Origin: Tubulanus polymorphus
Lineage: Eukaryota; Animalia; Nemertea
Direction: 5' to 3'
Assembly: GCF_964204645.1 (NCBI RefSeq)
Contig: NC_134033.1
Span: 7,572,655-7,636,654 of the forward strand
DNA length: 64,000 nt
The notes below the pieces were generated by a model that saw nothing but the letters and a program-made list of their open reading frames with translations, was not told the DNA's origin and did no database searches. This document shows positions 16,220 through 51,274 of the stretch, piece after piece. Position numbers and translations under genes: made by a program. Numbering within the stretch: position 1 is the stretch's first letter; each line of letters opens with the position of its first letter.

Positions 16220-16289
16220 AGTCATTGGAAAAGTTGGCTTTCAGATCAGAGGACGAGATGACGAGACACCACTCATCACCACAAGTAAT
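16220..16289 (+). repeat. Left TIR of Polinton A
   Basis: AGTCATTGGAAAAG...CCACAAGTAAT, complementary to 46694-46763. Confidence 0.93.
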
Positions 16290-16304
16290 TTTTTTCCCTA
16301 ATAA

Positions 16305-19300
16305 ATGGGGGAGAATGAACACCAGCCAGAAAACAATAATGTTAATAAAGATCAATATTATTGCACAGATTGTAAAAAATACGTCGATACATCTAATAAA
16401 ACACGACATGAAAAAACTGCAAATCATATAAAAAATGTAATAGATTTTGAAACTCCAGAAAATTCCAATGAAAGAAAAGAAAGATTAGAAAATATGAATG
16501 TGGATGAAATAAAATGTGAAGTTTGTAATGAATTTATAGTAAAAAGGAATTATAATAGACATCTCGAATCACAAAAACACCATCAAAATTTGAGTAATAA
16601 TGTTTTAGGAAAAGATTATTTTGATGATAAACCTCAAAAAGTAAAAAAGCCAACTTCAAAAACTAAATCCATTTCAAATAAACCTTACATGGAAAATGTT
16701 AGAAATTATATTGATTCACTAGAAATAAAAGATACTATTGAAATTTTAGAAACATTACATAGTAAAATTGGTCCTGCAGCTATTATATTTAGATTTTTTA
16801 AAGGAACAACAATAGAAGATTATAGTACATTTAATGAAATAATAGAAAAAATACTAGATTTGATAACAGATGTTGAATATCCAAAAATTAGTATCTCTGG
16901 GAAAGTAAGTTTTATAAAGTCAGAAGAAAAAATGAATTATAATATTCAAACACACTCTAAAGAAATAATTTCAAAAACACAAATAAAAGAGAAGTTAGAA
17001 AAAATATTTAATGAATTTAAACGTCATATTGAAGAAAGATATTTTGAGGGTTCTGGCTTAACATTGAATGAAATTATATATTTAGATTTAAATGTTTATA
17101 ATACAAAAAGAAATAAAACATCAAAAAGTAAAACAATGTTTGAAAATGATTCAAACTTTACAACAGAAAAGGATATTAAAGCATCATCTTATATTAAATT
17201 ACCATTTACAACAAAAGCAGTAATAAATGTTCAAAATGAAGATAATAAATGTTTTCTATGGTCAATTATTAGTTGCTTACATCCAACACAGGAAAATGTT
17301 TGTAAAATAACAGATTATCGGAAATATGAAACATTATATAAAATTGATCAATATCCAGTAACTATAAAAATGATTTCTAAAATAGAAAAATTTAATAATT
17401 TAAAAATAAACGTATTCGAATTAATGCAATTACCAAAGACAAAAGGTGAAAATATTAAAGATTATACATTGGAAGCTTTATATTTAACAGAATATTATGA
17501 TGATGAAAATGCTATAGATTTGTTATATTACAAAAAAGATGAACATGAACATTATATGTGGTTAAAACAAATTGATTTATTCTTTAGAACAGAAAGTGAT
17601 CATCATCATAAAATTTATCTATGTAGAAAATGTTTATCTAAATTTATGACTGAGAATACATTATTAAAACATAAAGAATTATGTGATAATAAAGATTTTT
17701 GCAAATTAATAATGCCAACAGAAAAAGATTATAAATTGAAATTTACTAATCATAAATTTAAGAATATTGTTCCATTTGTAATTTATGGAGATTTTGAATC
17801 GTTGAATAAAGAATTAACTGATCAAGATAGAAAAGAAATATATAACAAAAAGCAATTATTAAAATCAATGGATAAAGGAAATGAATTAAATGAAGACACA
17901 ATACAAGACCCACCAATTATAAATACAATTAAAAAAGTTCATCAAAGAGCTGCTGTTTTTGGAATTTATATAAAATCAAATTATCCCGAATTATATGAAA
18001 GTCAATATATTTCTTTTAGAGGTGAAAATGTAGTTAATGATTTTTGTGATAAAATGATTGAATTAGAAAGTGATTTTGCAAAATTATTAAACAAAAATAA
18101 AAGAATAGTTATGACAAAAGAAGATGAAATTGATTTTAATTATGCAACTCATTGTTGTTATTGTGAAAAACGTTTTTATTCATTTGATAAAAAAGTTAGA
18201 GATCATGATCATTTAAATTCAAAATATCGTGGAGCTGCTCATGAAGATTGCAATTTACAAGCTAAGAAAGTTAATTTCGTACCAATATTATTTCATAATT
18301 TATCAGGCTATGATACCCATCTATTTATAAAACAATTATCGGGACAATTGGGCGCAATTAATCAAGAAATAGAAGAATATAATGCTATGAATGGTGTAAA
18401 TGTAAGAAAATATGATTTTAAACTATTAGCTAAAACATCTGAAAATTATATTTCATTTCAATTTGGTTGCATTAGATTTTTAGATTCTTATAGATTTCTA
18501 GCAAGTTCATTAGATAATTTATCAAAAAGTTTAGTTGATAATGATTTTGTTATAACTCGATATTATTATCCAAATGAACAAGATTTTAAATTATTGAGAT
18601 ATAAAGGTGCAATTCCTTATTCATTTTATAAAACACACAATGATTTTAATGTAACAGAATTATTAAAAGATCAATTTTATGATCAATTAAAAGAGGAGTA
18701 TGTGAAAGACGAAGTGTTTAATAGAACATTAAATATTTGGAACCATTTTAAGATGAAAAATCATGGTAAATTAGTTGATTTATATTTAAAATCAGATGTT
18801 ATGATATTGGCTGACATATTTGAAAAATTTAGAGAAGTTAATTTGAATCATTTTAATGTTGATCCTTGTTATTGCTACTCTAGTCCTGGTTTAACCTGGC
18901 AATATGGTTTAAAATATACAAATGTAGAATTAGATTTATTAAAAGAACCAGATATGGTTTTATTATTTGAAAAATCAATTAGAGGTGGAATTAGTGGTGT
19001 TATGGGAGATAGGTATTTTAAAGCAAATGATGAATACAAATTATTATATATTGACGCCAATAATTTATATGGCTGGGCAATGATGCAACCCCAACCATAT
19101 AAAAATTTTATATTAACAGAAGTTGAAAATGATTATAAAACTAATTGGGAAAGCGCAATTATGAGTTTAGAAGACGAAGCTCCAATTGGTTATTTCCTTG
19201 TAGTTGATTTAGAATATCCTGAAAATATAAAGTTTAAAACAAGAAACTTACCTTATTGCCCAGAACATTTAACTGTAGATGATAGTTATTTAAGTGAATA

Positions 19301-20736
19301 CCAGAAGAAAATAAAACCGAAAGATCATGTTTTTACAGAAAAATTAATACTTACTCAAAATAATAAATACAATTATATTGTTCATTATAGAATGTTAAAA
19401 TTTTATCTAAAACAAGGAATGAAATTAAAGAAAGTACATAGATATATCGAATTTAATCAATCGAAGTGGTTAGAAAAATATATAGATTTCAATACTCAAC
19501 AGAGAACAATATCAAAAACAGATTTTGAAAAAGATTTCTTCAAATTAATGAATAATAGTTTTTATGGTAAAACATGTGAAATATTAGAAATAGAAATGAT
19601 ATTGAATTAGTAAATAATTCTGAACGATTAAGACATTTACAATCAAGTCCTAGACATTTAGGAAATAAAAGATTTGAAGATTATTTAACAGCAGTTAAAT
19701 TAAAAAGAACGTCAATGAAATTTAATAAACCTATATTCATTGGTTCAACTGTTTTAGAAGTATCAAAATTATTAATGTATGATTTTTATTATAATGTTTT
19801 ACAACCACTTTTTGGGGAAAAGCATATTGAAATATTATATTTTGATTCTGTAACAGCTGACACCCCAATATTATTAAAATGTAATGATAAAATATTGATA
19901 AGAAGAATTTCAGAAATAATTCCAAAACAAAATGAATGTTATATTTCATATGGTGAAAAAGAATCAATACAAATAAATGGATTAATGGATGTATGGACAA
20001 GAAATGGATGGAAAAAATTAAAGAATATTATTAAGCATAAAACAAATAAGAAAATCTATAGAGTTAGAACTAAATTAGGGTTCGTTGATGTTACAGAAGA
20101 TCATAGTTTAATTAAACGAAATGGTGATGAAATAAAACCAACTGATATTGGAGACGAATTATTACATAAAAGATTTTTCCAAAGAATGAATCATATGTCA
20201 TTTGATGAAATAATTGATAATATTTATAACATAGAACCCGAAACATTAGAAGAAAAAGAATATTTTATCAAAGGATTTTTCATGGGAGATGGTTCAGCAG
20301 GTGTGTATAATTATGTTTGGGGTAATAAATATTGCTGGTATTTATGCAATCAAGACTTAAAATTATTAGAAAGAATTAAGAAATTCTCTGAAGAAGTTTA
20401 TTCACATAAAACATTCAAAATCATAGATGTTATGAAATCATCGCAATGTTATAGAATACATGTGAATAATCCTAAAGATTTTGCTATAAAATATGATGAC
20501 GAATTCTATATTCATGCAATAGTGAAAAGTAAAAGTAAAAGTAATAGTTGTTCCAGATAATGTATTAAATGCAAAAAAATAATTTAAGAAAGTGGTTCTT
20601 CATTGGATTCTATGCCGCAGATGGCACTAAAAAATTTACAAAGGATAAAAAGATAACCTTTGCACAGAAAGGAAAAGTTGCTATATCAGGATTAAATATA
20701 TTATGCAGTTCATTAGGATTTAATATGAATATAGAA
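16305..20736 (+). pseudogene. Polinton A protein-primed DNA polymerase B (N-extein plus first ~297 codons of intein)
   Basis: ExoI YGDFES, ExoII FHNLSGYD, ExoIII YLKSDV, motif A YIDANNLYGWAM, motif B KLMNNSFYGK, YFD; 1-nt deletion ~19580. Confidence 0.95.
19847..20736 (+). other. Intein N-terminal part with LAGLIDADG homing endonuclease
   Basis: Block A SVTADTPI, block B VTEDHSL, FIKGFFMGDG and (after a frameshift ~20575) FFIGFYAADG. Confidence 0.92.
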
Positions 20737-27497: not shown

Positions 27498-29919
27498 CAT
27501 TGTATTCTCGCGTTATTTTAGTTTTGTCGTAATGTCGCCCTTATTTGCATATTCGTGTTATTTATCTTATCAGCCACCATACTAAAGCTTTAAGGTCGCC
27601 TAAAACTCGATAAACACTTCAAGCGACACAGCGAACGATCTCCTTTCCCCCACAGCGAACGCTTACTCCGAATGTCAAGTGTGAGCCCAGCATACGGATA
27701 GGAGTGTGTTATATACTTGTATTTAGTGAATACCTTGTGGATTTGACAATGATCGGTATGTACTGTAGGAAATATAGAGTATCGATGGTATTGATAAAGA
27801 GGGCCGCGGCCGAATAAAGTAATATGTTCTTTTATTTTGATACCTCGTCGACATAACAGCTTTTCTCCGCTATATCTCTTCGGCGTGTTTAGTTTAGGCC
27901 TACGACTCCCCGGTACACTTATGATTTATCTTAGTAAAAACACGGTAAATTTGGTAAAGAAAAATAGGTATCGCTAAATTAACTGCTTGACGCCCGCAGC
28001 CAAATCACTGGTAGTAATAAATTAATTTGTACTCGATTTGATTCTCAGAATGAGAGAAACTCGCAGCTGATTCCCGGAACGACGATGTAGTGACACACGT
28101 CGATTTGTCGATGTTTACGGCTCGACAGTGCTTTTAAAATCTAAAGTAGTAAATTTCCTGTGTATCAGTAATATAATTTGATGAGGAAAATGGGTTACTG
28201 TTAAAATTAGTTTTTAAAAACCGCGACAGAATGTGCAATCTTTCGGTAATAAATTTGTTAATTTATGCTTGAATTGATAATCGATGTGATAAGAAACGTG
28301 CGGTAGATTTCGGAAAGACGACTTAGAAAAACATGTCGGCTCTTTGAATGGGGCTCAATTTTCGAAGTTTACGGCCCGACAGTGCTTTTGTAACGTTGAT
28401 TCTTCAAAATTCGCACGGAGTATTTGTAGATCGAACTGAGCTGAATGATATCAGACGGATTGTATCGGCAACAGCGGTAATGTAAAAAAGCCTATGTCCT
28501 TTTGACAAAAAATGTGTGGAAAAAAATAATAATAATAATAATAACTATAGCTGCAAAGCAGCGATAACGGGTTTTCTGCACAGTCTTAGAATCCTGTTCA
28601 ACGGTGGATTTCGACGAAGCATTTGATAAGGCACAACATCAGCCATTACTAAACAGGCTATTAGGAAACAGTATCAATGATAGGTCGCCAAAATGGCTCA
28701 GCAGTTATCTCTGAACGAAAACTTGTAGCCGAAATCAACGGAACGCCTCATCTTGGAATAAGTCGGTCAAACTAGTGGAGTCACGCAAGGTAGTATCCTA
28801 AGTTGTCTTCTGTTTAATGTCCTGACAAATGACATACACAGTAATCCAACATATACCACACCGAGTAAATTTCCAAATCGACCTTAACACGCTGTTCGAC
28901 CAAAAAACTTAATGTTCCAACAAGAAAATCTTGTTCGAATGAAAATAATTCTGTTTGATCGAACAATACGCTTTTTGCTTGAACCAAAAATTTTCTTCAT
29001 TCTGACAAAAAATGTGTTCGAATAAAAAGCTATGTTATTGTTGAAATGAAAAATTTTAAGTCCCGGCAAAAAAATTTGGTCGAGCGAAAACAACTTTTTC
29101 GAACGAATGTTTGAATGAAAACAATTCTGTTCGATTGAACGAAATACTTCATACTTTCGGTTTGGAGAAAAAATTTTTTTCAATATACTTGTTCGAACGA
29201 AAAACTTAATGTTCTGACAAGAAAATTCTGTTCAAATTAAAAAAGATTCTGTTCAATTGAACGATTGTTCGAACGAAAAACCTTTCGTTTGGACAAAAAA
29301 AAGTTTGTTCATGTTTGTTCTTACGATTTTTTCAAATTGGTTCAATCGTATAGAATATTATTGGTTCGAACGAAATAAATTTTGTTCCGACGAAAGAATT
29401 TTCAAGCGAAAGGTCTTTTGAACGAAAAAAAAGATATTTCTGGTGCTCCGCAGTAACTTAAAGCCGGATGTAGGTTGGTCTTGTGACACGATGCGATCCT
29501 CGCGTTGCATCGCAAGTTTCAGTGCAAGTCGGTTGCAATACGATTGTGTGCGACTAGTTTCTGCCAGTCGCAAGAGCGCGTCGGTTGGTTGTGACAGTCG
29601 TGTCGCGTCGCAGAAAGTAGAACACGTACGACTCCATGTGACTGGCGTTGCTGAAAGATGAGGACGCCAGTGATATGACGACTGAGTTTCAATTCGTCAA
29701 AACGTCACGTTGTGTCAACATATTTATGTTGACTTGATGCGATATATCGCGATATATCGACATAATTATGGCGACTTGTCGTGTTTGAACGCGACAACTC
29801 GAGGCCCTTTATCGCTTCCGTAGATCTTTCATTAAGTAGGATCACTTGAATGATCGCTTTAATATCACTTTAAAAAAAAAAGAATCTGCCAAAATGACCT
29901 TAATATTCGACACTATATG

Positions 29920-30336
29920 TACAGAAGCGATAAGGGGCCTCGAGATGTCGCGTTCCAACTCGACAAGTCGCCATATTTATGTCGACATACCGCGATATAT
30001 CGCGTCAAGTCGACATGAATATGTCGATATATCGTGACGTTTTGACGACATATTTCGTTTTCTCGACCATTTTCCTCGCGACAAGTCGACATATTCATGA
30101 CGACTTGAAACTCAGTCGTCATATTACTAGCGTCCTCATCTTACATTTAGACATGTCTTCAAATGACAGCTTGTCCCGTGGAAAATGAGCAAAAAAAGCG
30201 AGATTTGTTGTGAAAACGTCACGATATGTAGACATATTCATGTGGACTTGACGCGATATATCGCGATATATCGACATAAATATGGTGACTTGTCGAGTTT
30301 GAACGCGACAACTCGAGGCCCTTTATCGCTTCCGTA
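29920..30336. mobile_element. MITE-like foldback element; partial extra copy at ~29655-29822
   Basis: TIRs TAC(A/G)GAAGCGATAA(G/A)GGGCCTCGAG... of over 100 bp; flanks CTATATG/CTATATC. Confidence 0.6.
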
Positions 30337-30424
30337 CTATATCAGATTAATCGACTTCAAAATAGGCGAAAGCATAAGTCTTTATTACGTTATTAATTGG
30401 CCTAATTATTCAAAAGCTAATAAA

Positions 30425-31775
30425 GTGGGCGACAAAACCAAAAAATTAATTGTCGCTGGCGGTAAAACCAAAATATTGAATTGTCACGGGCGATAAAACC
30501 AAAATAATGAATTGTCGCTGGCGATAAAACCAAAATATTGAATTGTCGCAGGCGATAAAGCCAAAATATTGAATTGTCGCGTGGGACAAAACCAAAACAT
30601 TGAATTGTCGCGGGCGACAAAACCAAACTAATGAATTGTCGCGGGCGATAAAACCAAAATAATGAATTGTCGCGGGCGATAAAACCAAAATAATGAATTG
30701 TCGCTGGTGATAAAACCAAAATATTGAATTGTCGCAGGCGATAAAACCGCGACAAAAAAAAAATTGTCGAGGGCGATAAAACCAAAATAATGAATTGTCG
30801 CAAGCGATAAAACCAAAATAATAAATTGTCGCGGGCGATAAAACCAAAATAATGAATTGTCGCGGGCGACCAAACCAAAAAAAAAAATTGTCGCGGGCGA
30901 CAAAAACAAAATATAAAACCAAAAGAAGAATTGTCGCGGGCGTCAAAACCAAAATAATGAATTGTCGCTGGAGATAAAACCAAAGTAATGAATTGTCGTG
31001 GGAGATAAAACCAAAATATTGAATTGTCGCGGGCGACAAAACCAAACTAATGAATTGTCGCGGGCGACAAAACCAAAATGATGAATTGTCTCGGGCGACA
31101 AAACCAAAATAATGAATTGTCGCGGGCGATAAAACCAAAAAAATGAATTATAGCGGGCGATAAAACCAAAATATTGAATTGTCGCGGGCGATTAAACCAA
31201 AATAATGAATTGTCGCTGGCGACAATACCAATATATTGAATTGTCCCGGGAGATAAAACCAAAATATTGAATTGTCGCGGGCGACAAAACCAAACTAATG
31301 AATTGTCGCGGGCGACAAAACCAAAATGATGAATTGTCTCGGGCGACAAAACCAAAATAATGAATTGTCGCGGGCGATAAAACCAAAAAATGAATTATAG
31401 CGGGCGATAAAACCAAAATATTGAATTGTCGCGGGCGATTAAAACAAAATAATGAATTGTCGCTGGCGACAATACCAATATATTGAATTGTCCCGGGCGA
31501 CAAAACCAAAAAAAAGAATTGTCCCGGGCGACTAAAACAAAATATAAAACCAAAATAATGAATTGTCACGGGCGTCAAAACCAAAATAATGAATTGTCGC
31601 GGGCGATAAAACCAAAATATTGAATTGTCGTGGGCGACAAAACCAAAATATTGATTTGTCGCGGGTGACAAAACCAAATTAATGAATTGTCGCGGGCGAT
31701 AAATTCAAAATAATGAGTTGTCGCGGGCGATAAAACCGAAATAATGAATTGTCGCGGGCGACAAAACCAAAATTA
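30425..31775. repeat. 31-bp satellite array
   Basis: Same consensus as the other arrays. Confidence 0.93.
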
Positions 31776-33114
31776 TTGTTTTGTCGCGTTATTTTAGTTT
31801 TGTCGTTTTGTCATAATATCGCCCTCATTTGCATATACGTGTTTTTTTACGCATGGCCCTTATCAGCCACCATACTAAAGCCTTAAGGTCGCGTAAAACT
31901 CGATAAACACTTCAAGCGACACAGCGAACGATCTCCTTTCACCTTCAGCGAACGCTTAACCTAGTAGAGGCTAGAGGCTACTAGCCTATGTAGGCCTATG
32001 TATATGCGTAGGCCTAACATCCGGACAGATTGGTCGTAGGCCTATTGAATTTAACAACCCACCTAAATATCGTAAATTTTGTTTTGAAGTTCAATCCAAT
32101 GAGTCCGTTAATAAACGCAACAATTGTACTGTGTTTGTTTGATACAGTAAAGCTCAGTACCGGTAGGCCTAAAGCCGCGTCAAACTCGATAAACACTTCA
32201 AGCGACACAGCGAACGATCCCTTTCCCCCACAGCGAACGCTTACTCCGAATGTCAAGTGTGAGTCCAGCATACGGATAGGAGTGTGTTATATACTTGTAT
32301 TTAGTAAATACCTTGTGCATTTGAATATGATCGGTATGTACTGTAGGAAATATAGAGTATTGATGGTATTGATATAGAGGTTGAAGCCCGCGGCCGAAAA
32401 AAGTAATATATTCTTTTATTTTGATACCTCGTCGACATAACAGCTTTTCTCCGCTATATCTCTTCGGCGTGTTTAGTTTAGGCCTACGATTCCCCGGTAC
32501 ACTAAAGATTTATCTTAGTAAATACACGGTTAATTCGGTAAAGAGAAATAGGTATTGTTATACTAACTCCTTGAAACCCGCAGCCAAATCACTGGTAGTA
32601 ATAAATTAATTTGTACTCGATTTGATTCTCATGATGAGGAGAAACTCGCAGCTGATCTCCGGAACGACGATGTAGTAACACACGTCGATTCGTCGATGTT
32701 TACGGCTCGACAGTGCTTTTAAAATCTAAAGTAGTCAATTTCCAGTGTATCGGTAATATGATTTGATGAGGAAAATGGGCTATTGTTAAAATCACTGTTT
32801 GAAGACCGCGACTGAATTTGAAGTCAATAAATTAGTTCATTTATACTTGAATTGATAATCGAAGTGACAGTCGGCCTGCGGGTTGATTTCGGGATGACGA
32901 CTCGAAAAACATGTCGCCCCATTGAATGGGGCTAAATTTTCGATGTTTACGGCCCGACAGCGCTTTTGTAACGATGATTCGTGAAAAAACACGCGGGCTA
33001 TTTGTAGATCTCAGTGAGCTGAACGATATTATATGGATTGTATATGAAACAGCGGTAAGGTAACAAAGCCTATGTTCTTTTGGTAAAAATAGTGTGGAAG
33101 AAAATAATAATAAT

Positions 33115-33281
33115 AATAATCACGCGGATATCAATAGGGTTTTCTGTGAAATAACAGAAAACCCTAATAATAAGAAACACGCGAATCTCAATAGGGTTTT
33201 CTGTGATGTAACAGAAAACCCTAATAATAAGAAACACGCGAATCTCAATAGGGTTTTCTGTGATGTAACAGAAAACCCTAA
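33115..33281. repeat. Three 57-bp units, each carrying the Helentron terminal hairpin
   Basis: CACGCG at 33121, 33178, 33235; AGGGTTTTCTG-N8-CAGAAAACCCT. Confidence 0.85.
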
Positions 33282-33446
33282 TTAATTAAACCTAAACCAA
33301 ATTGTTTTAATTTAAGGCATGTAGAAAAAGAATTAACAGAAGAAGTTAAAGATTTATTTGAAATATATAACCCAACTGACTATGTTTATGATTTATCAAC
33401 AGATGATGGAACATTCAATTCTGGGTTCCCATTAATCCAAAAAAAT
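33282..33446 (+). other. Intein C-terminal part (blocks F and G)
   Basis: Manual translation ...DYVYDLSTDDGTFNSGFPLIQKN then TDS; not shown in the ORF track. Confidence 0.92.
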
Positions 33447-33902
33447 ACTGACAGTTACATACTAAAAATCAAGACAAATGACATAACAAAAGACTTAAAA
33501 ACATTAAAACATCATTTTGATTTTAGCAATTATCCCAAAGATCATGAACTATTTAGCAATGATAATAAAAAGATTCCTGATAAATTTAAAGATGAATTAG
33601 GGGGTGATGAAATGATTGAATTTGTTGGGATAAGAAGTAAAATGTATAGTTACAGAACAAAAGATCATGAAGCTAAAAAGTTAAAAGGAATAACAAAACA
33701 TGTGGTTGATAAACATATAGAATTTCAAGATTATATAAAGTGTTTATATAAATCAATTGTAATGAAACATAAAATGAATTGTTTAAGATCAGAAGATCAC
33801 GAGATGTACATTAATGAAGTTGAAAAAACTAGTTTGAATCCATTTGATGATAAAAGGCGTATTTTAGATGATGGTATAAAAACATTACCTTATGGTTATT
33901 AA
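33447..33902 (+). pseudogene. Polinton A pPolB C-extein
   Basis: TDSYILKIK...KFKDELGG..GIRSKMY...LNPFDDKR, open frame to the stop. Confidence 0.93.
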
Positions 33903-35215
33903 AACATAAAATCAATATCATCATACTCGAAATCACTAGTGGCTTCTTCATTTTCATTTAATTGTTCTTGTATAATTTGTTTAGGTTCTTCCATTTCATT
34001 TTTCTCATTTAAATAAAGTTCTATCTTGTATCACATTTCATCTCGCTCTCTTTGTTTCTTTTTGTTTGTTAATTCGTCAAATGGAATTATAATATCGATG
34101 TTTAAATAATTTACAATCTTATTTAAAAAGAATTCATAATTAATTGAATCTGTTATTCTATTTTCCAAATGATACATTAATATTTGTTTGAATATTTTTT
34201 TTATATTTTCCATATCTTCTTCTGTTAATTTAGGTTTTTCATAATAATAAATATAAATACATTTTCTTTTGTTTTGTGTTAAATGTTGACGGAATAATTG
34301 TTTTTATAATATCTTTTTTAGTTATTTCACCATTTTTATTTTCTATTATTTTCATTTTTTCAAGCCATTGCATATATTCTGGTGTATGATCTTCTATAGA
34401 AAATATTTAAAAAATTTCATCTAGATAATTTAATTTCGGTTCTATGAGAAAATTTCTAGTTTTTTCTTCACCCCATGAATTCTTTTGCCATCCACAATCA
34501 ACACAAAATAACACAGTACCTTCTTGTCTTAAGGTCGCATAACTACATTGTGGACATTTTCGTTTATAATTTATTGGTAATAGATCTTCATTAAGCTCCT
34601 GGTATTTTCTTACGTTTTCTTTATGTTTTATTGTTCTATTATGTAGATTTGAATTACTTGTTGTAATAATCAATTTACAATATTTACAATTATATGTTTT
34701 CTTGTTAATTCATTATATTGTTTTTCTAACTTTTCAACTGTTTCTTTATTATCTGGTAACGTTTTCTCATATTTTATTTTTCCTAATAAATTATTTTTTC
34801 TTTCATTGAATTCAGTTTCAAATTTATTAGAAATTTTATCTATATGTACTTTACGAAATTGATGATTCTCCCAATCTTCTATATTTTCAGGGCTATATTT
34901 TACTCGACAAGGCTCGCAGAAATGATCTTTTATATTATCCTTATCATAGAATAAGAAAGGTCTTTTCCAAATAACTTCAGGTTCAACTTCAGCAGAATTA
35001 CTATTACTTTCATTACTATCAACATTAGCCGTTGCACCATTAATTTTACACTTCTCTGAATGTTTTTTAACATAATTTCTTGAGAATAATTTATTACATT
35101 TTGGGCAGTTTAGTTTAGGGGGTTTATAATTTTCTTCATGTTTTTTCATATGTCGAGCCATATTACTTTTTCTTAGAAGTTCATCACAAATTTCGCATGC
35201 TATCTTCTCATCCAT
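33899..35215 (-). pseudogene. Multi-zinc-finger + poxvirus A2/VLTF3-like late transcription factor, ~435 aa reconstructed
   Basis: Joins ORFs 34670-35215, 34407-34673, 34031-34213 across two frameshifts and two stops; CPQC..CVDCG ribbon, NFLIEPKLNYL, IKKIFKQILMYHLEN, INYEFFLNKI. Confidence 0.75.
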
Positions 35216-35273
35216 TTATTAGGGAAAAAAATTACTTGTGGTGATGAGTGGTAATTTTTTTATGTTATAAATA
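35212..35273. promoter_or_regulatory. Back-to-back putative promoters of the VLTF3-like gene and penton
   Basis: 41 bp identical to the sequence upstream of pPolB (CCACTCATCACCACAAGTAA-T7-CCCTAATAAATG). Confidence 0.6.
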
Positions 35274-36029
35274 ATGGTAGAATTAAAAGAATACAGAATA
35301 TTTGTTGATTCAAGAAGACTTACAAATTATAAATCACATAATTTAATAGTTCAATTAGATAGAGAATTCAAGAATGGTGTTGATTTAAAATTAGTAAATA
35401 TAAGTTTATGTAACTCATTTTACAATATATCGGATAAAAGTTTTGATCATAGATTGTTTATGATTCATGATAAAAATATGGATAAATGGTATCATCTATT
35501 TCTAAGACCAGGATTATATAATTTAGAAACATTATCTCACGAAATTAATAGAAGAGCTCGGTTAAAAGTGGGTGAATCTGTTGGGTTTAACATTAAATTT
35601 AATAAAATTGATAGTACTAATAAAATAAGAATAAAGTTAACTAATGAACAATATAAATTCATAGTAAGAAAACCATTAGCTAAAATGCTAGGAGTTAATC
35701 CAAATAAAGTTTATTCAAATGTTGATACTACGCCAAATATAATACCTTTTACGCACTTCTATATTTATTGTAATTTAATTGATCCTACAAAAACATTCGA
35801 AGCAACTAAAGATACAATTTGTAATTCTAGTATATTAAATATTTTACCATTAAAAAATGTTAAACAATTTGGAACGCAAATAAATTATAATTTAGCTGAA
35901 TGTGATTTTAAACCTTGTATTCCACATTTCAATAATTTTAAATTAGAAATAAGAAATCATAATGGTTATTTAATTGATTTGAATAACTTTCCTGTAATTT
36001 ATGAATTAGTTATAAGATGTAAAGAGTAA
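35274..36029 (+). CDS. Minor capsid protein (penton)
   Basis: 251 aa, beta-rich, N-terminal IFVDS..N..F/L and C-terminal G.LIDLNNFP pattern; Polinton context. Confidence 0.75.
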   Translation: MVELKEYRIFVDSRRLTNYKSHNLIVQLDREFKNGVDLKLVNISLCNSFYNISDKSFDHRLFMIHDKNMDKWYHLFLRPGLYNLETLSHEINRRARLKVGESVGFNIKFNKIDSTNKIRIKLTNEQYKFIVRKPLAKMLGVNPNKVYSNVDTTPNIIPFTHFYIYCNLIDPTKTFEATKDTICNSSILNILPLKNVKQFGTQINYNLAECDFKPCIPHFNNFKLEIRNHNGYLIDLNNFPVIYELVIRCKE

Positions 36030-36045
36030 TTCTTTCACTATATAA

Positions 36046-36399
36046 ATGAATATAACTGTTGGACCGAGTATATGTTTTGGATTTGATTTTAAACGTGAGA
36101 AAGAAATGAAATTTAACATTAATGATGTAATTACACATATCAAAAATATTGCATTTTCTAATGAAACAACATTTGAGTATGAAACAACAATAGACAAAGA
36201 AACTTTAAATGTAGAAAAGATTACTAATTTAATTAGAGAATCTTTAAGATTTTATGAATTAGATGAAGATTTTATCATAGATGATATTAAAAAAATAATA
36301 ATTGAAATATATACAAATGAAACTAGTAATGAAATAAATGTTGAATTAATCATAAATAAGTTAACTAAATATTTTGAAGATAGTAATTTTTTTGATTAA
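36046..36399 (+). CDS. Polinton hypothetical protein
   Basis: Intact; homolog at 47053-47367. Confidence 0.7.
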   Translation: MNITVGPSICFGFDFKREKEMKFNINDVITHIKNIAFSNETTFEYETTIDKETLNVEKITNLIRESLRFYELDEDFIIDDIKKIIIEIYTNETSNEINVELIINKLTKYFEDSNFFD

Positions 36400-36402
36400 T
36401 AA

Positions 36403-36624
36403 ATGAGTGATAATAAGTGGATAATAACTGGATTATATAATGGCGCATTACTATCAGTTGGAACTGTTGGTTATTCAATGGTATTAAAAAAAGTATTTAA
36501 AATGGGAAGTGTTAATGTTGATAGATTTGATATAAATGATATTTTAAAATTAACATTAGCAGTTACTTTATCTAATTTAACTATTGATTATTTGGAAAAA
36601 CAAAAATATATTCCTCCCATATAA
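36403..36624 (+). CDS. Small two-helix hydrophobic protein
   Basis: Two hydrophobic segments; conserved in B. Confidence 0.7.
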   Translation: MSDNKWIITGLYNGALLSVGTVGYSMVLKKVFKMGSVNVDRFDINDILKLTLAVTLSNLTIDYLEKQKYIPPI

Positions 36625-36648
36625 ATGCATAATTTTTTTGCTAAATAA

Positions 36649-37071
36649 ATGGCTTCTGCAATTATAACTATTATAGGATCGGCAATTGTTAACGCTTTAG
36701 CATTTACTGGTGGCGGTTATTTATTTAAGCATATTGATAAAAATAGTTCATTAGGAGAACAAAGAAGACATAACTTAGCATTAGAGAAATACAATAAAGC
36801 AGCGGAAGAATATAGAGAAAAACGACAAAACTATATGGATTATATTAACAAGGAATTATATGATCAGAAGATTTCACATAGAGATTTTCAATCAGTTGAT
36901 GATGCAATGAGTTTAGATAACGCAGTAACCAATAAAGAAAAATTACATAAATACAAACCTAAATTATCAGATTATTATACCCCGAGTAAAGAACAACAGA
37001 AATATGAAATAATTTGGATTTTAGGTGGAACTGTTATTGTTATATTTGTAGCATATAAATTTACTTATTAG
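36649..37071 (+). CDS. Membrane protein (N- and C-terminal hydrophobic helices, central coiled coil)
   Basis: Intact; close homolog at 47613-48035. Confidence 0.78.
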   Translation: MASAIITIIGSAIVNALAFTGGGYLFKHIDKNSSLGEQRRHNLALEKYNKAAEEYREKRQNYMDYINKELYDQKISHRDFQSVDDAMSLDNAVTNKEKLHKYKPKLSDYYTPSKEQQKYEIIWILGGTVIVIFVAYKFTY

Positions 37072-37090
37072 TAATTTTTTTTCTAAATAA

Positions 37091-37525
37091 ATGGAAGATA
37101 AAGTTGATAGTATTGATATTATTCCTCATGATATAAATAAAACTAAATTAAAAATATATTTAGAAAAACAAATATTAGAATTTGAAAGTGACTTAAAGAT
37201 AAAAAAGAAAAAATATTTAAAAAGTAAAATTATATATTATCTTATTATTAGTGGTTCGGTTACAATTAGTTCTGTAATAACATTTCTAGCAATATTCAGT
37301 CCATCAACACCTTTAGCTATATCAATTGGTGTATTAGGATTAAGTTCAAGTGTATTAACTGGTATAAGTTCAAAATTATATATAAAAAGTAATAAAGAAA
37401 AATTTAAAACTAATATCAAAGAAATTAATAAATTGAAGAATACACTAGATTATATAATAAGTTTAAATGGTCATATAACAGTTGAAGAACGAGATAAATT
37501 ATTAAAAGAATTAATAAATTATTAA
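37091..37525 (+). CDS. Two-TM protein
   Basis: IIYYLIISG...AIF and LAISIGVLGL segments; truncated homolog at 48055. Confidence 0.72.
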   Translation: MEDKVDSIDIIPHDINKTKLKIYLEKQILEFESDLKIKKKKYLKSKIIYYLIISGSVTISSVITFLAIFSPSTPLAISIGVLGLSSSVLTGISSKLYIKSNKEKFKTNIKEINKLKNTLDYIISLNGHITVEERDKLLKELINY

Positions 37526-37541
37526 TTTTTTAATTAGATAA

Positions 37542-40177
37542 ATGGTAGATAGTTTTCCAAAAGCTTTCCAATATAATAAATCAATTAAATATAATATTCC
37601 AGCAATAGATTTTAATAAATATATTACATATAGAAATGAAGTTTTAGATTCATTAACTAATTTAGAAATTTATGTTACTGAAACTAATAATTTTAATGCA
37701 AAGATGGAAAATATATTTCATGTATATTTAATTAATTCTAAGAAATTGAAAGATGAAAAACAACGGTTATTAAAATCTAATATGAAGTATTGGCAGAACC
37801 AATTAATTTTGCTGTTTATTGTGCAACAACAGGATGTGGAATTAGTTGGAATGATCATTTGAATAATTCTAAATATAAATTAATTCAAAGTTTATTTAGA
37901 TTTCATACATACTTTCAAATCAGAATATTAAATGAATTAGAGTGCGCTTTACCAGGATCTAGGTATTTTAAAGAATTAGATAATAATATTAATTTATCAA
38001 AGTTTTCTAAAATTTGTAATGAATTTAATATAGATATAAATAATTCTGATTTTAGAACAAAAATTGGAACAATAAGATCACTTCCTTGCCCTAAAAAGAT
38101 TGCAGAATATTGTGCACTTCCCATACCATCTAATAGTTTGTATAATATCTATAGTAATAAATTAGGTTATGGTAAAATAGAAACTAAGGATTTAGAAACA
38201 TTAAATTTCAATAAATTACCGACATTTTATGATAATTTAAAACAAGAAAACAATAATGGTTGGGTTTATTTCATTTTAGAAAATAATGAAGGTTTTACAA
38301 AATCAGGTATACAAAGAATAAATCAATCTATTAGAACTTATTTGATATGTATTTTAGGTGCGCAAGTTGAAACAAGATCCCCAATAATTGGAAATTTAAA
38401 TACATCATTTGATACACAGAAACAATTCAAAGTATTATTTGAAGATTCTATTCATAATGATAAAAATAGATCGATTCCAGAAAACATTGTAAGATATCAA
38501 AATTATTTAGATAAATCTCAACAACATTTGAGTATGAAACAACAATAGACAAAGAAACTTTAAATGTAGAAAAGATTACTAATTTAATTACAGAATCTTT
38601 AAGATTTTATGAATTAGATGAAGATTTTATCATAGATGATATTAAAAAAACAATAATTGAAATATATACAAATGAAACTAGTAATGAAATAAATGTTGAA
38701 TTAATCATAAATAAGTTAACTAAATATTTTGAAGATAGTAATTTTTTTGATTAATAAATGAGTGATAATAAGTGGATAATAACTGGATTATAAGATGTAA
38801 AGAGTAATTATTTCACTATATAAATGAATATAACTGTTGGGCTGAGTATATGTTTTGGGTTTGATTTTAAACATGAGAAAGAAATTAAATTTAACATTAA
38901 TGATGTAATTACACATATCAAAAATATTGCATTTTCTAATGAAACACCATTTGAGTATGAAATAACAATAGATAAAGAAACTTTAAATGTAGAAAAGATT
39001 ACTAATTTAATTAGAGAATCTTTAAGATCTTATGAATTAGATGAAGATTTTTAAAATCGATGATATTAAACAAATAATAATTGAAATATATACAAATGAA
39101 ACTAGTAATGAAATAAATGTTGAAATAATCATCACTAAGATAACTAAATATTTTGATGATAGTAAATTTTTGATAAATAGATGAGTGATAATAAGTGGAT
39201 AATAACTGGATTATATAATGGCGCATTACTATCAGTTGGAACTGTTGGTTATTCAATGGTATTAAAAAATGTATTTAAAATGGGAAGTGTTAATGTTGAT
39301 AGATTTGATATAAATGATATTTTAAAATTAACGTTAGCAGTTACTTTATCTAATTTAACTATTGATTATTTGGAAAAAACAAAAATATATTCCTCCCATA
39401 TAAATGCATAATTGTTTTGCTAAATAAATGGCTTCTGCAATTATAACTCTATTATAGGATCGGCAATTGTTAACGCTTTAGCATTTACTGGTGGCGGTTA
39501 TTTATTTAAGCATATTGATAAAAATAGTTCATTAGGAGAACAAAGAAGACATAACTTAGCATTAGAGAAATACAATAAAGCAAATAATGAAGGTTTTACA
39601 AAATCAGGTATACAAAGAATAAATCAATCTATTAGAACTTATTTGATATGTATTTTAGGTGCGCAAGTTGAAACAAGATCCCCAATAATTGGAAATTTAA
39701 ATACATCATTTGATACACAGAAACAATTCAAAGTATTATTTGAAGATTGGAAAATCATGTAATAAATCTCATGTAAGACTAAATTATTGTATAGGCCCTA
39801 ATCTATTAATCATTTCTAATGATTTAGTACTAAAGATGGGAAACATAATTGGTTACAATAATATAATTAAAACTGCAACAATAAATAATTCATTTGGATT
39901 AAATAATATAAATAAAAAGATTATTACCGCTCCAAAATTAATGGAAGGTGAAAAAAATAAAAAACACATTCAATCAACAGAAACTAAAACTAAAAATATT
40001 AAATTGCATAATGATTCTAAAATAAAAGATTACAATACATCAGAAAATATAAAAACTGATAATATTCAACATGATATAATTAAAACTGATAATGATAATA
40101 AATTCCATGAAAATACTAAATTAGCTTTAACTTGTACAGGAATTGTTATAGGAGGAATATTATATTTTAAATTTTAA
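37542..40177 (+). pseudogene. Polinton hypothetical gene with C-terminal TM, interrupted by duplicated segments at 38521-39760
   Basis: Frameshift ~37795; frame resumes at KSHVRLNYCIG via ATAAATCTCA homology. Confidence 0.65.
38521..39760 (+). repeat. Mosaic internal duplication of 36009-36802 and 38281-38447
   Basis: Degenerate second copies of the 36046, 36403 and 36649 genes. Confidence 0.85.
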
Positions 40178-40193
40178 TTTTTTTATTATATAA

Positions 40194-41652
40194 ATGGATG
40201 TAGAAGGTGGAGAAGATATTGGAATGGATCCTTTAGATGAACCTGGTATAACTGATGAACAACAACCTGATTTTAGTGAAACAAGTTTTAATGACGGTAA
40301 TGAGTCAGGATATAATAATAATTTAAATATGCCTGATTATATTAAAAATGCAGAATCACAATTAAATCCTGAAAATTTAGACCCAGATTTAGTAAAACAA
40401 GATTTAGATTAATTTAAACAAAATACCTAAATAAGAAGATTTAATTGAAAAATCTAAACTTAACATAAATGATGAAGACGTAGGACTTTTAGCAGATCAA
40501 TTAAAATTTCTAGATAATGGTAAATGTTATTATCGTTTGAAAGATGATTATTATGTTGATATCACTTATAAAAATAATAAAAATAAAATATTATCAGAAT
40601 CAACTTTAGAAAAATTAAAACCAGATAGAATTAAAAGAATAAGTAATAGTAATGAAATAACTGATGTTACACAAAAAGAAAGAGATGATAATATAGACGT
40701 ATTTAAACAAAAAATTAATGAATTATTTGAAATAATCAAAAAGAAATCAGAAGCAGAAACAACTTCTGAACAGAATATAACTTCCAAAACTAAAAAACTT
40801 AAATCAAATAAAGTTCCAATTGAAAAACTTTTACCGAATGGATTAATTGATGCAACAGATCAACAGTTAGAAGATTTAAATAACATATTTTCTGATGAAG
40901 CAATTAGAGAAATTAAAAGTATAAGACTTGCATCTGATAAAATTGCGCATGATAAAAGTATAAGAGATTTAAAAATTAGAACTTTAGAAGATGAATTATT
41001 TAAATCAAGAAAAGAATCGGAACAACTAAAATTAGATAGAGATAATAAAGTTATTGAAGAAATCGAATTTAAAAAAAGAAATGCATATTTAGAAAAAGAA
41101 ATTGATGATTTAGAATATAACATAGAATTACAAAAAGAAGAAATTAAATCATTAGTAAAATCATATGATTATAATATTAATAGATTAAAAGTTATTTTTA
41201 AAGATTTATTGATAAAACCAAATTCTGAAATATCATTGAAAGATAGAATAAAGTTATTATTTAAATTAGAAGGAATAACAATTCTTTCAATTCTAACAGC
41301 TGTAACTATATTATTTACAACAATTGGTTTAGCAATATCAAATGCTTTAAAATCTACTCCTACTCCAAATAAACCAGATAAACCCCCAGATAATAATTCT
41401 ATACAAGATAAAGTTAATGATGGTTTAAAGAAATTAGCAAAATATTTATGGGAACTATCTAAAAAATCTGCTGCAGCTTTACCCGGAGTTATTGCATCAA
41501 TTGTTGGTTTTATATTGAAATCTGCAGGAAATATTCTTAACTTTGCTGCTGAACATTATTTTATTTTTAATTACAGTTGTAAGTGCTATTATTTTTGGGC
41601 TAGTGAATATGATATCAAAAGATATCAAGTAAACATAATCAAAAATAAATGA
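40194..41652 (+). pseudogene. Acidic/coiled-coil protein with C-terminal hydrophobic helices
   Basis: ORFs 40194-40412 and 40537-41652; TAAATG start. Confidence 0.65.
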
Positions 41653-41672
41653 TAAATTTTTTTGTTAAATAA

Positions 41673-42920
41673 ATGAGTGGGAGTTATATAAGTCCTTCTA
41701 AGATTTCTAGAATATCTAATGCTATTAAAGCAGAAAGATCACATCATGTAATTACTCATAATCCTTCAAATATTAATCCCGATGAAACTTTATATGTTAG
41801 AATTCCTAGATTAACACAAAATACTTTTTATGTTCCAAATAGTATTTATTTATCAGCTGATATAAAAGTAACCGGTCATGATAATAATTATGTTGTTGAT
41901 AATGTTGGGAGATATTTGATTAAAAAATTAACTATAAAGATTGGTCCAGAAACAGTTTTCTCATTAGATGATTATAATTTATTTGCACATTATAAAGATT
42001 TATGGTTAACTAAAGAAAATAGAAATAATATGATATTTCAAGGCATCCAATCAGAAATCCATAATAAATTAAGATCAGGAGCTAATGACGCAATAGTAAC
42101 TCGTGCCACTGATAATTTGATTAAAAAGATTTATGGAAGCAAATATAAAATTCCATGAGACTTTGAATTGATAAATAATAATGCACCTTTATATAAATAT
42201 GTAATTCAAGAAGATATTATATTTGAGATAACATTTGCTCCTGTAAATGAAATTGTATTATCTAGCGTTGTTAAAGATATGGGTTATAAATTATCAAATA
42301 TATGTTTAGAATATGACACAGTAACTAATGAAAATATTGCTAGCACAATTCAAACTCAATACAATCAAGGATTTTCATTATTATATGATTATATTGATAA
42401 ATTTAAAACTGTAACTATTAATGCAAATGATGAAATAATTAATGAGAATATTAACTTCCCAAGAAGATCTATTAAAGGTATATCAATATTTTTTACCATT
42501 GCAACATATTCTAATGACGCAATAAATGTTGATAATTATTATAATCCTGAAATAACAAAAGTAGAAATAACTATCGAAGGAATAGCAAATAAAATATTTT
42601 GTCAAGGAATGAGAATGATAGATCAGTGGCCAGAAATTAGAAAACATTTTATGAATGAAAAAGTAACATCATTTGAAAATTGTAATATTAATCAAATTGA
42701 TTATTATACCGGTAATAAATATGCATTATGGTTAGATTTTAGAACAACAGAGGATAATTCATTACATGGTTCTGGAAAAAAACTACAAAACACTAAAGAT
42801 GGAATACAATTATTCATGACAAAGAATGAAGGAATCAAAAATTTCAAAATGCACATTTATATTATATCTGACGCACAATTAAATATTGTAAATTCACAAA
42901 TAGATAGTATTCAATATTAG
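41673..42920 (+). pseudogene. Major capsid protein (double jelly-roll), single in-frame stop at 42156
   Basis: ~415 codons in one frame, NPSNINPDETLYVRIP and C-terminal YIISDAQLNI; upstream of integrase and ATPase. Confidence 0.8.
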
Positions 42921-42950
42921 AAATATAAAGTTAAAATTAACGATATATAA

Positions 42951-44083
42951 ATGGGTGGTAAAAAAACTCCTAATACTAAAGAACAATATTTAAGAAATTT
43001 ATATTACAACCCTGAGAGTTCGGTTGCTTATTCTTCTACTAAAAATATATGGCGTCAAGTAAAACAAGATAAATTAGATAAGATAATCCCACAAAATTTA
43101 GTTAAATATAAAGATATAAATGAATTTATGTTAGAACAACCAACATACACAACACATAAAAAAATTGTTAGAAAATATAAAACTCGTAAAACTATGGTAA
43201 GTTATGTAGATCAACAGTGAGTGGCAAGGAGATTTAATTGATATGAAAAATGTTAAGAAAGATAATGATGATTATTGGTGGATACTGAATATAATTGATA
43301 TTTTTAGTCGTTATGTATGGAGCTTCCCACTTTATAGAAAAGATGCTGTACAAACATCAAATGTTTTAAGAAAATTTCTTTCGGATGATAAACTAAAACC
43401 AGAAAAAATACAATTCGATGATGGGAAAGAGTTTGATAATTCACTTGTTCATGAACTCTTAGATAATCATAATATTAAACATTTTTCAACAAAATCGGAT
43501 AAAAAAGCAGCAGTTGTTGAACGATTTAATAGAACATTAAGAACAAGAATGTGGAAATATTTTACAGCAAATAATACTTTTAAATGGATTGATGTTTTAC
43601 CACAATTGATAGAAGGATATAATAATTCTTATCATTCTTCTATTGGAATGAAACCTATTGATGCTAGAAAACCTGAAAATGCTGAAATTGTTTGGAATAA
43701 TTTATATGGAGCATTTCTTGTAGATTATTTTGGTCAACCTAAATTTAAAGTTGGTCAAAATGTTAGAATTTCTAAGTATAAAAAGATATTTGACAAAGGA
43801 TACGATCGAAATTTTACTAGGGAAATATATAAAATAAAAAAAGGTAATAACAACAAAACCATATGTCTATAAATTAGAAGATTTAGATGGTGAAGAAGTT
43901 GATGGCTACTTTTACGAAGAAGAATTAAGTTTAACTACTGAAAATCTAGAACAAGAATATAAAATTGAAAAAGTATTAAAAACAAAAACTATTAAAAGAA
44001 AAAAATATTCTTTAGTAAAATGGGTTGGATGGCCAGATAAATTCAATGAATGGATATTATCAAGTAAAATTAAAAATATATAA
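42951..44083 (+). pseudogene. Retroviral-type (rve) integrase with C-terminal chromodomain
   Basis: WQGDLID, QFDDGKEF, VERFNRT; YKIEKV...VKWVGWP..FNEW; frameshifts ~43220 and ~43840. Confidence 0.93.
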
Positions 44084-44692
44084 ATGAATAAGGAATTATT
44101 TATATTTGAGCCTCATAATATGTTAATTTCTGGCGTAACAAATTGTGGAAAAACTTATTTTATATTAAATTTATTAGAAACTGTTTATAAAAACTATTTT
44201 GATAATATAGTATTATTTTGTCCAACATATGAATTTAATCAAACTTATGATAGAAATATTACTAGAAATAATAAATTTATTATATTAGATCCTAAAACAG
44301 TAAAAGAAAATTTAGATAATTGTATAAAAATAGCAATTGATATTTATAAAGGATCAAATACATTATTCATTATAGATGATTGTGCTAATCTACATGATTC
44401 AAAAGTTAGAGAGAGTGAGTTATGCTATTTAGCTTTTTCTGGCAGACATTTTGGGATAACAACTTGGGTTTTAAATCAAAAATATAATTCAATTGTTAAA
44501 GACTTTAGAGAAAACATTAGATTTCTAGTTTTATTCTTCAATAAAGATAGAAAATCGATGAAAAATGCACTTGAGGAAAATGATATTATTCCACATGATT
44601 TACATAATGAATATATGGATAAGTTGAAAAATATTAAAAGATCAAAATTACTATTTAGATTACAACACCCATTTAAATATGAATTTATTTAA
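44084..44692 (+). CDS. A32/FtsK-like DNA packaging ATPase
   Basis: Walker A GVTNCGKT, Walker B FIIDD, GRH, LNQ. Confidence 0.93.
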   Translation: MNKELFIFEPHNMLISGVTNCGKTYFILNLLETVYKNYFDNIVLFCPTYEFNQTYDRNITRNNKFIILDPKTVKENLDNCIKIAIDIYKGSNTLFIIDDCANLHDSKVRESELCYLAFSGRHFGITTWVLNQKYNSIVKDFRENIRFLVLFFNKDRKSMKNALEENDIIPHDLHNEYMDKLKNIKRSKLLFRLQHPFKYEFI

Positions 44693-44694
44693 AT

Positions 44695-44970
44695 TCAATT
44701 AGCTTGTTAATCTAGTTGAATTCTATTTACATTCTAGTTGAATTCTAGTTATTGGTAGTTGTAACAAAAATCAACTAGATTTAACAATATTTTAACTAGC
44801 TTGTTTATCTAGTTTAATTCTAGTTACATTCTAGTTGAATTCTAGTTGTTAGTAGTTGAAACAAAAATCAACTAGATTTAACGAGAAATAAACAAAAACA
44901 ACAATATTTCAACTAGCTTGTTAATCTAGTTGAATGCTAGTTACATTCTAGTTGAATTCTAGTTGCAACA
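44695..44970. repeat. CTAG-rich intergenic tandem repeat (3 units of ~95-117 bp)
   Basis: CTAGTTGAATTCTAGTT units; diverged copy at 48340-48505. Confidence 0.8.
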
Positions 44971-44996
44971 TCACAACTAATTTTTTTGTTATATAA

Positions 44997-45602
44997 ATGG
45001 TAGGTGAAAAGAAAATAAAATCTAAAAATGGTGATGTTCCAATTGAAAAAACTTTAGATGATTTAGGAATAACAGAAAACAAATTAATTCCAGATAATGG
45101 TGCTTTAAATAATGTTACAACAAATAATAATTATGAATATCATCTTTATTGTAAACATCAATTAGAAATATTAATAGCATCTGGAAAATGCAAAAATTTT
45201 GTCGGTAAAAATTTAACTCATAATGAATTAGATACAATGAAATCAGATGAAATTATTAGATTATTTAAGATTTATGAAGCCGCGAGAACAGCTGTAATTA
45301 ATGACGCGATATCAGAAAATGTAGTAAAAGGTTATAGTAAATTATGTAATTATATACTACCAATTGAAGATGAAAATAGATTATATTCCGATTTAAAAAA
45401 TGATTATTTAGTTATGACTGAATTAAATAAATGGATTGGATATTTATCATTTCAATTAGGTGGATTTATGACATTATTATCAACTGGGGTTATAACATTT
45501 TCAAATAGTGAAAGTAAAAATATTTCTATAATAAATGAGCGAGGTGGAAGAAGTGAAGGAATTAACTGTGAAGAAAAAACCGAGAACTCAGAAACAAATT
45601 GA
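44997..45602 (+). CDS. Polinton hypothetical protein
   Basis: Intact 201 aa, TAAATG start, 5' end conserved in B. Confidence 0.72.
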   Translation: MVGEKKIKSKNGDVPIEKTLDDLGITENKLIPDNGALNNVTTNNNYEYHLYCKHQLEILIASGKCKNFVGKNLTHNELDTMKSDEIIRLFKIYEAARTAVINDAISENVVKGYSKLCNYILPIEDENRLYSDLKNDYLVMTELNKWIGYLSFQLGGFMTLLSTGVITFSNSESKNISIINERGGRSEGINCEEKTENSETN

Positions 45603-47036: not shown

Positions 47037-47052
47037 TTTTTTCACTATATAA

Positions 47053-47588: not shown

Positions 47589-47612
47589 ATGCGTAATTAT
47601 TTTACTAAATAA

Positions 47613-51270: not shown

Positions 51271-51274
51271 TATA

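Follow-up and report, generated by a model that had tools for sequence, protein, structure and literature searches.

The window, by which we mean the whole 64,000-nucleotide stretch analyzed, contains AT-rich blocks (22 to 25% GC) inside a background of 34 to 39% GC with satellites. One of these blocks carries three minus-strand ORFs, 35215-34670 (181 aa), 34709-34407 (100 aa, in another frame), and 34303-34031 (90 aa, in the frame of the first), which a sequence-only reading had taken for the remains of a single gene. A HMMER search with the last piece against 1.84 billion protein representatives returned three proteins, P0004 (697 aa, E = 3e-19), P0005 (446 aa, E = 1.6e-9), and P0006 (P0006/P0009; 281 aa, E = 1.3e-4). 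P0004 and P0005 are single open frames to which all three window pieces matched in order. Consistent with this, tblastn of P0004 against the window gave collinear segments at 35212-34988, 34984-34697, 34703-34263, and 34270-33911 with 40 to 47% identity (linked E = 1e-61 for the last three segments), and P0005 was likewise collinear (5e-20). The three ORFs are therefore one broken gene, as had been proposed, and their interpretation as separate, unrelated genes was rejected on the strength of this collinear coverage, the intact relatives being single open frames. Each part predicted for the gene, namely four fingers, a Zn ribbon, a helical domain, and an acidic tail, was present (Table 1). The domain layout of P0004 and P0005 is four fingers, a C4 ribbon, and the helical domain. 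Since both are uninterrupted and match the window layout, the fusion of fingers to an A2-like domain is real and old rather than an accident of the window copy. The epithet "cryptic" given to the gene suits the decayed copy in the window but not the family, whose members P0004 and P0005 are intact frames. P0006 comprises the ribbon and helical domain only, has no fingers, and is missed by Pfam; its genomic context could reveal the state that preceded finger addition.

Table 1. Features of the VLTF3 gene and of the surrounding Polinton DNA, in window coordinates
Feature	Position	Strand	Evidence or remark
Whole VLTF3 gene: four zinc fingers, C4 ribbon, VLTF3/A2-like helical domain, acidic tail	33899..35215	-	Broken at four places
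Upstream element of VLTF3 gene	35213..35250	-	31-nt block with AA and T-run, then TAAATG over the start codon
Finger 1, C-x2-C-x11-H-x3-H	35138..35197	-	zf-C2H2 E 3e-4, under cut-off
Finger 2, C-x2-C-x11-H-x3-C	35048..35107	-	P0004 alike
Finger 3, C-x2-C-x14-H-x5-H	34844..34918	-	P0004 alike
Finger 4, C-x2-C-x11-H-x5-H, U1/matrin type	34623..34688	-	zf-U1 26 bits, cut-off 22
C4 zinc ribbon, counterpart of the poxvirus A2 N-terminal ribbon	34494..34556	-	Alignment
VLTF3/A2-like helical domain	33998..34460	-	Interrupted by breaks 2 to 4
Acidic tail	33902..33997	-	12 D/E and 1 K/R in 32 residues
Break 1, frame change	34690..34705	-	tblastn; 199/279 reads differ in length at 34696
Break 2, in-frame stop	34407..34409	-	271/285 reads differ
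Break 3, frame change	34238..34270	-	tblastn; 127/226 reads differ in length at 34242
Break 4, in-frame stop in last helix of domain	34031..34033	-	211/217 reads differ
pPolB C-terminal piece	33282-33902		Adjoins VLTF3 gene
pPolB copy	16287..19610	+	Two x11/x5 leader fingers; 31-nt upstream block as at VLTF3 gene
Major capsid gene	41655..42920	+	Capsid_N E 0.002; split by stop; AA-T-run-TAAAT motif at head
rve integrase with chromodomain	42951..44083	+	Pfam; frameshifted; TAAATG start, A-rich tract upstream
A32-type packaging ATPase	44084..44692	+	Pox_A32 E 2.5e-13; TAAATG start, A-rich tract upstream

The four breaks lay within about 10 nt of the positions foreseen for them (~34705, ~34250, 34407, and 34031). 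We scrutinized each in the raw reads of run X6, which come from another sample bearing the same species label, and most reads differed from the window at every break, length differences being undercounted near read ends. Programmed frameshifting, readthrough, and introns were rejected, as the reads of the other sample were mostly without the window's state at all four breaks. In this run the mean depth stood at 251 for the VLTF3 gene, 321 for the integrase, and 848 for the capsid gene, and at several sites only 2 to 14 reads lacked the common difference from the window. These read counts suggest that the genome carries tens of copies of the VLTF3 gene. Given the depth and the prevalence of reads that differ at the breaks, the gene is a regular part of one Polinton subfamily and the window copy is a pseudogene, while a capsid depth about three times that of the VLTF3 gene shows that several Polinton subfamilies occupy the one genome. 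No second copy of the gene was found in the window. A profile of the family recovered P0005 and P0006 again and nothing further, and a word-index protein search with the two downstream pieces found no match among longer proteins. Viral contigs queried with the pieces, the ATPase, the capsid, P0004, and P0006 yielded no usable relative locus; metagenomes gave one chance match, to a bacterial-type gene (L001), and prokaryote genomes no usable relative.

The AT-rich block around the VLTF3 gene is a rearranged, decayed Polinton/Maverick, with Pfam recovering hallmark genes for pPolB (E = 3e-17), the rve integrase (1e-10), the A32 ATPase (2.5e-13), and, weakly, the capsid (0.002). Long pPolB copies occupy 7743-20560. 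Two distinct pPolB types were discernible (regions 7743-13707, 14095-15332, and 33282-33902), their DNA being about 72 to 78% alike, and both have zinc-finger leaders of x11/x5 or x12/x5 spacing. The C-terminal part of pPolB at 19580-20560(+) and 6047-6844(-) carries an insert that resembles an intein (Intein_splicing E = 0.006) and includes a homing-endonuclease-like stretch. The large inverted repeats in the window are duplications and foldbacks. One foldback, centered near 13300 (window 1-26400), joins a pPolB block and flanking satellite to an inverted duplicate that is 98 to 100% identical, and may be real or an assembly effect. The regions 36010-39400 and 46738-51300 hold small genes duplicated internally in tandem, together with another copy of the capsid-integrase-ATPase block, decayed and partly inverted. 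A membrane protein of two helices, encoded at 37091-37525(+), weakly matches SLATT (E = 0.0035), and there is at 51591-53100(+) a decayed LTR-retrotransposon integrase region (Integrase_H2C2, rve), which we take to be BEL/Pao-like. The Polinton blocks are flanked (1-6000 and 21100-32600) by arrays of two repeats, a 31-nt satellite and a repeat of 155 nt. The ORF at 35274 had no Pfam match, and Pfam detected no cysteine protease among 25 ORF pieces and no RNA polymerase among the window ORFs scanned.

The ribbon and helical domain together are a homolog of VLTF3/poxvirus A2, as profile, fold, and language-model searches agree. The proposed search against Pox_VLTF3 did find a match to the window piece (E = 4e-4, or 4.5e-5 when trimmed) but one below the Pfam cut-off (20.5 versus 25 bits), and none of the three intact relatives, P0004 to P0006, matched PF04947, so that Pfam misses this family. 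For a finer comparison, giant-virus VLTF3 and poxvirus A2 loci were fetched, with three giant-virus and one poxvirus locus checked by Pfam, and profiles were built from 16 of 72 giant-virus and 12 of 23 full-length poxvirus proteins after near-identical ones had been removed; the window query was the read-through, with X at the breaks. Against the poxvirus A2 profile the window scored 29.3 bits, P0004 26.8, P0005 23.7, and P0006 7.5, where the best of 1,000 shuffles reached 18.0, the next 7.9, and reversed sequences fell below 0. Scores against the giant-virus VLTF3 profile (window 2.7 bits, P0004 1.2, P0005 4.9, P0006 -7.6) were inside the shuffle range. In hhalign, over about 190 columns that included the ribbon, poxvirus A2 reached 96.8% versus 93.0% for giant-virus VLTF3. 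These sequence scores place the window protein nearer to poxvirus A2 than to the VLTF3 of the giant viruses compared, a set that stops short of the asfarviruses, iridoviruses, egoviruses, mriyaviruses, and the VLTF3 of PLVs. Because a window motif served to fetch the poxvirus set, the comparison is biased toward A2; the fold search and the ESM Atlas, both of which are free of this bias, nevertheless agree with it.

BLAST aligned the window to one poxvirus A2 (L126) with 35% identity over 48 residues (pairwise E = 1e-8; E = 0.018 for the ribbon part only), overall identity to poxvirus A2 being about 20%. Three of the A2 segments that the sequence-only reading had quoted occur letter for letter in this protein, and it is there that the window segments align; the fourth segment falls across one of the breaks. 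The homology to VLTF3/A2 proposed in that reading is supported, and among the VLTF3 sampled poxvirus A2 is the nearer. A C4 ribbon stands just before the helical domain in the window, P0004, P0005, and P0006, and aligns to A2 positions 4 to 30. The ribbon had been predicted correctly, but its description as an added part fails, because poxvirus A2 carries an N-terminal ribbon of its own (PF08792) that aligns to that of the window, leaving the fingers and the acidic tail as the sole added parts. Among 16 poxvirus families around A2, A1 included, only A2 matched the window (1.7e-7), with one other at 0.012, and the A1 profile had no match in the six frames of the window. The tree that had been called for, against Poxviridae and other NCLDV homologs, combined four rows of the present family with the 12 of 23 full-length poxvirus and 16 of 72 giant-virus rows. 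It resolved three groups on long branches but not the placement of the family; its stems of 1.9, 5.3, and 8.5 are distances, and a three-group tree cannot show sisterhood.

Structure predictions concurred. The helical domain was modeled from the relative P0004 rather than from the window copy (pLDDT 68), and a fold search with this model placed entomopox and cowpox VLTF3 at ranks 1, 3, and 5 (TM 0.55 to 0.65). The cowpox match (TM 0.65, E = 8e-4) compares one predicted model with another. A VLTF3 or late factor was named in 14 of the best 20 rows, and rank 2 was a Moumouvirus protein with an unrelated name. With the P0005 domain, 27 of 30 ESM Atlas matches were Pox_VLTF3 (score 0.95), and Preplasmiviricota made up most of one cluster. 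A model of the full-length protein came out poorly (pLDDT 46), and its best viral match was again cowpox VLTF3 (E = 0.027). PDB sequence and Foldseek searches returned nothing significant.

We compared the DNA at the starts of the Polinton genes, taking the first ATG of one copy per gene kind with a clear start (n = 16) and omitting broken ORFs that had none. TAAATG occurred at 14 of the 16 starts versus 94 of 1,353 other ATGs in the same DNA (p = 2e-14); since three of the 16 share one upstream block, the starts amount to 14 independent ones. Upstream of TAAAT, T was found at positions -13 to -7 in 11 to 13 of the starts (at -10 in 13, versus 34%) and A at -15 and -14 in 14 and 15 of them, respectively. 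The register is fixed as AA, T-run, 6 nt, and TAAAT(G), and is common to 12 gene kinds, including pPolB, the capsid, and the VLTF3 gene, in the window regions 6000-20600 and 33200-51300. A rule based on this motif, derived from the same starts that it scores, had 18 matches in the 32.7 kb of Polinton DNA (6 of them duplicating a gene already counted; shuffled mean, 1.0), and all 18 lay 0 to 3 nt before an ATG at the head of a gene or of a broken duplicate, while the 31.3 kb of flank, which is GC-richer than the Polinton DNA, held none. At the integrase, the ATPase, ORF 15362, and the second pPolB type, the T-run is replaced by an A-rich tract, which may mark a second promoter class like the intermediate promoters of poxviruses. 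The 31-nt block before the VLTF3 gene is identical upstream of pPolB and near-identical upstream of ORF 46384(-), its sites being 35220-35250(-), 16270(+), 10357(-), 46419(-), and 46713(-). Because reads of run X6 branch at this block, it may mark a site of recombination or belong to a terminal repeat.

In poxvirus late transcription, initiation occurs within TAAAT and the message receives a 5' A-leader. TAAATG was present at 61 of 136 poxvirus starts (eight loci, orthologous and of mixed classes) versus 20 of 200 giant-virus starts, and the T-run of the sampled poxvirus starts, 54% of which have T at -10, was far weaker than that of the Polinton. In the available text of PMC11980589, the vaccinia late promoter is a TAAAT that overlaps the start codon, usually followed by G, and the tenth base upstream is a T with more T's around it; TAAAT(G) at 14 and T at -10 at 13 of the 16 Polinton starts match that description. 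From this pattern of letters we infer that the AA-T-run-6 nt-TAAAT motif acts as a promoter and that transcription begins within TAAAT.

The explanation to which we lean, at somewhat less than an even chance, is that a working A2-like protein would help the RNA polymerase of a coinfecting, poxvirus-like virus to start at the TAAAT promoters of the Polinton. We favor it because a late-type motif heads nearly all genes, there is one late factor, and neither a polymerase nor A1 appeared in what was scanned. A virophage-like Polinton would supply its own A2-type late factor, by which the polymerase and other factors of the helper would be drawn to its promoters; the ribbon and helical domain could act in a TFIIB-like manner, and the fingers would be accessory RNA- or protein-binding modules from the Polinton's own stock, not readers of sequence. 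Such a scheme would parallel the use that endogenous virophages make of giant virus late machinery, those elements having, in the part of PMC10945749 available, a single helper-type late motif and activity only upon infection. Beyond the gene, its homology, and the motif, we infer every step. The gene and the promoter are linked in one element family only, as P0004 to P0006 are known as proteins alone. A further step, that this animal Polinton lineage is the endogenous virophage of a poxvirus-like virus, having captured an A2-type factor from the side of the poxviruses, added fingers of its own, and brought almost every gene under promoters of poxvirus-late type so as to wake only on infection by such a virus, we consider doubtful.

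The closest competitor dispenses with a helper: the protein would be a private initiation factor for host RNA polymerase II in the nucleus, its ribbon and cyclin-like domain replacing TFIIB. Polintons integrate and are thought to be nuclear, and in a wide structure search 17 of the best 25 rows were cyclins, Rb pockets, or chains of TFIIB-family complexes (Z 5.2 to 6.1), identities that we in part presume. However, Z below 8 is not significant in this search, and the best row, a chain of a Pol II initiation complex (Z 6.1, rmsd 3.2, 89 residues aligned), was tied with unrelated ones. The promoters also argue against a private factor. Both the VLTF3 gene and pPolB are headed by the very motif that the factor must activate, and because the VLTF3 gene bears it, the Polinton would be unable to set off its cascade by itself. 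Were transcription to begin in TAAAT, a host-type message would, moreover, have almost no 5' leader. The weight that this account retains, unlikely but well ahead of those below, it owes to medusavirus, which expresses and keeps a VLTF3 without an RNA polymerase of its own (PMC8400408, in the part available), so that VLTF3 needs no viral polymerase.

It is improbable that the motif has nothing to do with the gene, serving as translation context or as punctuation of stop, terminator, and next start, with VLTF3 a passenger in some other role. The composition of the Polinton DNA, 22 to 25% GC, would be compatible with such an origin, and at 37542 and 40194 the AA before the T-run is part of the stop codon of the upstream gene. 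Against it, the register is kept where no same-strand stop occupies that position, namely at pPolB and at the head-to-head starts 35215/35274, and all 18 matches lie at starts. At the start at 35268, the distance from T-run to TAAAT is kept and the ATG comes 3 nt later; the T-run thus tracks TAAAT and not ATG, which fits a promoter better than translation context.

More improbable still is a decoy, an A2 mimic whose bulky finger arm jams or diverts late transcription of the helper and so protects the host. An identity to poxvirus A2 of only about 20%, the large added N-terminus, and the apparent retention of tens of genomic copies would suit it, and virophage defense offers a precedent (PMC10945749, in the part available), but the Polinton's own late-type promoters would be blocked as well, and the layout of ribbon and domain is fully kept in P0004 to P0006.

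Krüppel-type arrays consist of tandem C-x2-C-x12-H-x3-H fingers with short conserved linkers. None of the four window fingers has the Krüppel spacing, and fingers 2, 3, and 4 stand far apart. All four spacings are identical in P0004, the x11/x5 type of finger 4 also leads both pPolB types in the window, the fingers of P0005 passed the cut-off of zf-C2H2_jaz and reached zf-met, and in the ESM Atlas zf-met/JAZ clusters lay close to the N-terminal ORF, at a low overlap of features. To judge from these sequence features, the fingers look like accessory modules shuffled within the Polinton. That they instead read a specific DNA word in Polinton promoters and so tether the polymerase is very improbable, for although P0004 and P0005 keep all four and a 31-nt block is common to the upstream DNA of three genes, that block precedes only 3 of 16 genes, the spacings are non-Krüppel, the matches are of U1/JAZ/met type, pPolB carries the same type, and P0006 has no fingers at all. 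Of the earlier suggestion that added fingers redirect a helper polymerase to Polinton promoters, the helper polymerase is thus made plausible by the promoter evidence, and the DNA-reading fingers are not supported.

The transcription of animal Polintons, including any need for a helper virus, is an open question, and a late factor paired with a sharp promoter offers a direct handle on it, making the choice between host polymerase and helper virus decidable. If the helper reading is true, the virophage lifestyle extends from protists to animals and the kind of helper virus is named. No Polinton particles have been seen directly, according to the text available of PMC11131425. VLTF3 is called diagnostic for Nucleocytoviricota in the accessible part of PMC11253617, and its standing as a marker is weakened further by the present family.

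The presence of VLTF3 in polintons is already published. In the portions of these sources available, it is reported from coral polintoviruses (PMC11131425, citing Krupovic and Koonin 2016), MELD viruses (PMC8502044), Zephyrvirus VC123/126 and PLV clusters (bioRxiv 2026.06.19.733378), and Tetraselmis PLVs (bioRxiv 2025.10.09.676808), and the window shares with these a VLTF3 homolog inside a Polinton-class element. As far as those texts describe it, and the comparison is by description only, the published VLTF3 comes with no domain layout, finger arm, affinity to poxvirus A2, or promoter, and the supplement text of PMC11131425 and PMC8502044 has no VLTF entry. In the literature searched, which lay mostly outside subscription journals, we found no account of a fingered A2-like factor or of a poxvirus-type promoter in an animal Polinton. 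With the Group 2 Maverick-Polintons, as presented in the part of bioRxiv 2026.06.19.733378 available, the window element shares variable gene content, pPolB, the rve integrase, the A32 ATPase, and a SLATT-like gene (about E = 0.004), the cysteine protease being absent from the 25 ORF pieces; this likeness is one of gene content, the window element being rearranged.

Compared with poxvirus A2/VLTF3 (PF04947 and PF08792), termed a late factor in the text available of PMC11980589, the window protein has the same C4 ribbon directly before a helical domain of similar length (the approximately 190 columns that hhalign aligned at 96.8%) and a predicted fold close to the cowpox model. Its family differs, at that low overall identity, in about 200 to 320 additional N-terminal residues with four fingers and in the acidic tail. 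Unlike the complete poxvirus late system of A1, A2, G8, and polymerase, the window revealed no A1 and no RNA polymerase. The likeness to virophages is known from genes and motif, and dependence on a helper would follow from these by analogy. Endogenous virophages (mavirus/EMALE type 4, with the CroV late promoter; PMC10945749, in the part available) and the window element both integrate, both encode pPolB and an rve integrase, and both have a single late-type motif like that of a large cytoplasmic virus. In contrast to those virophages, the window element has a Polinton-type capsid module, probably an animal host, a poxvirus-type motif, and a late factor of its own.
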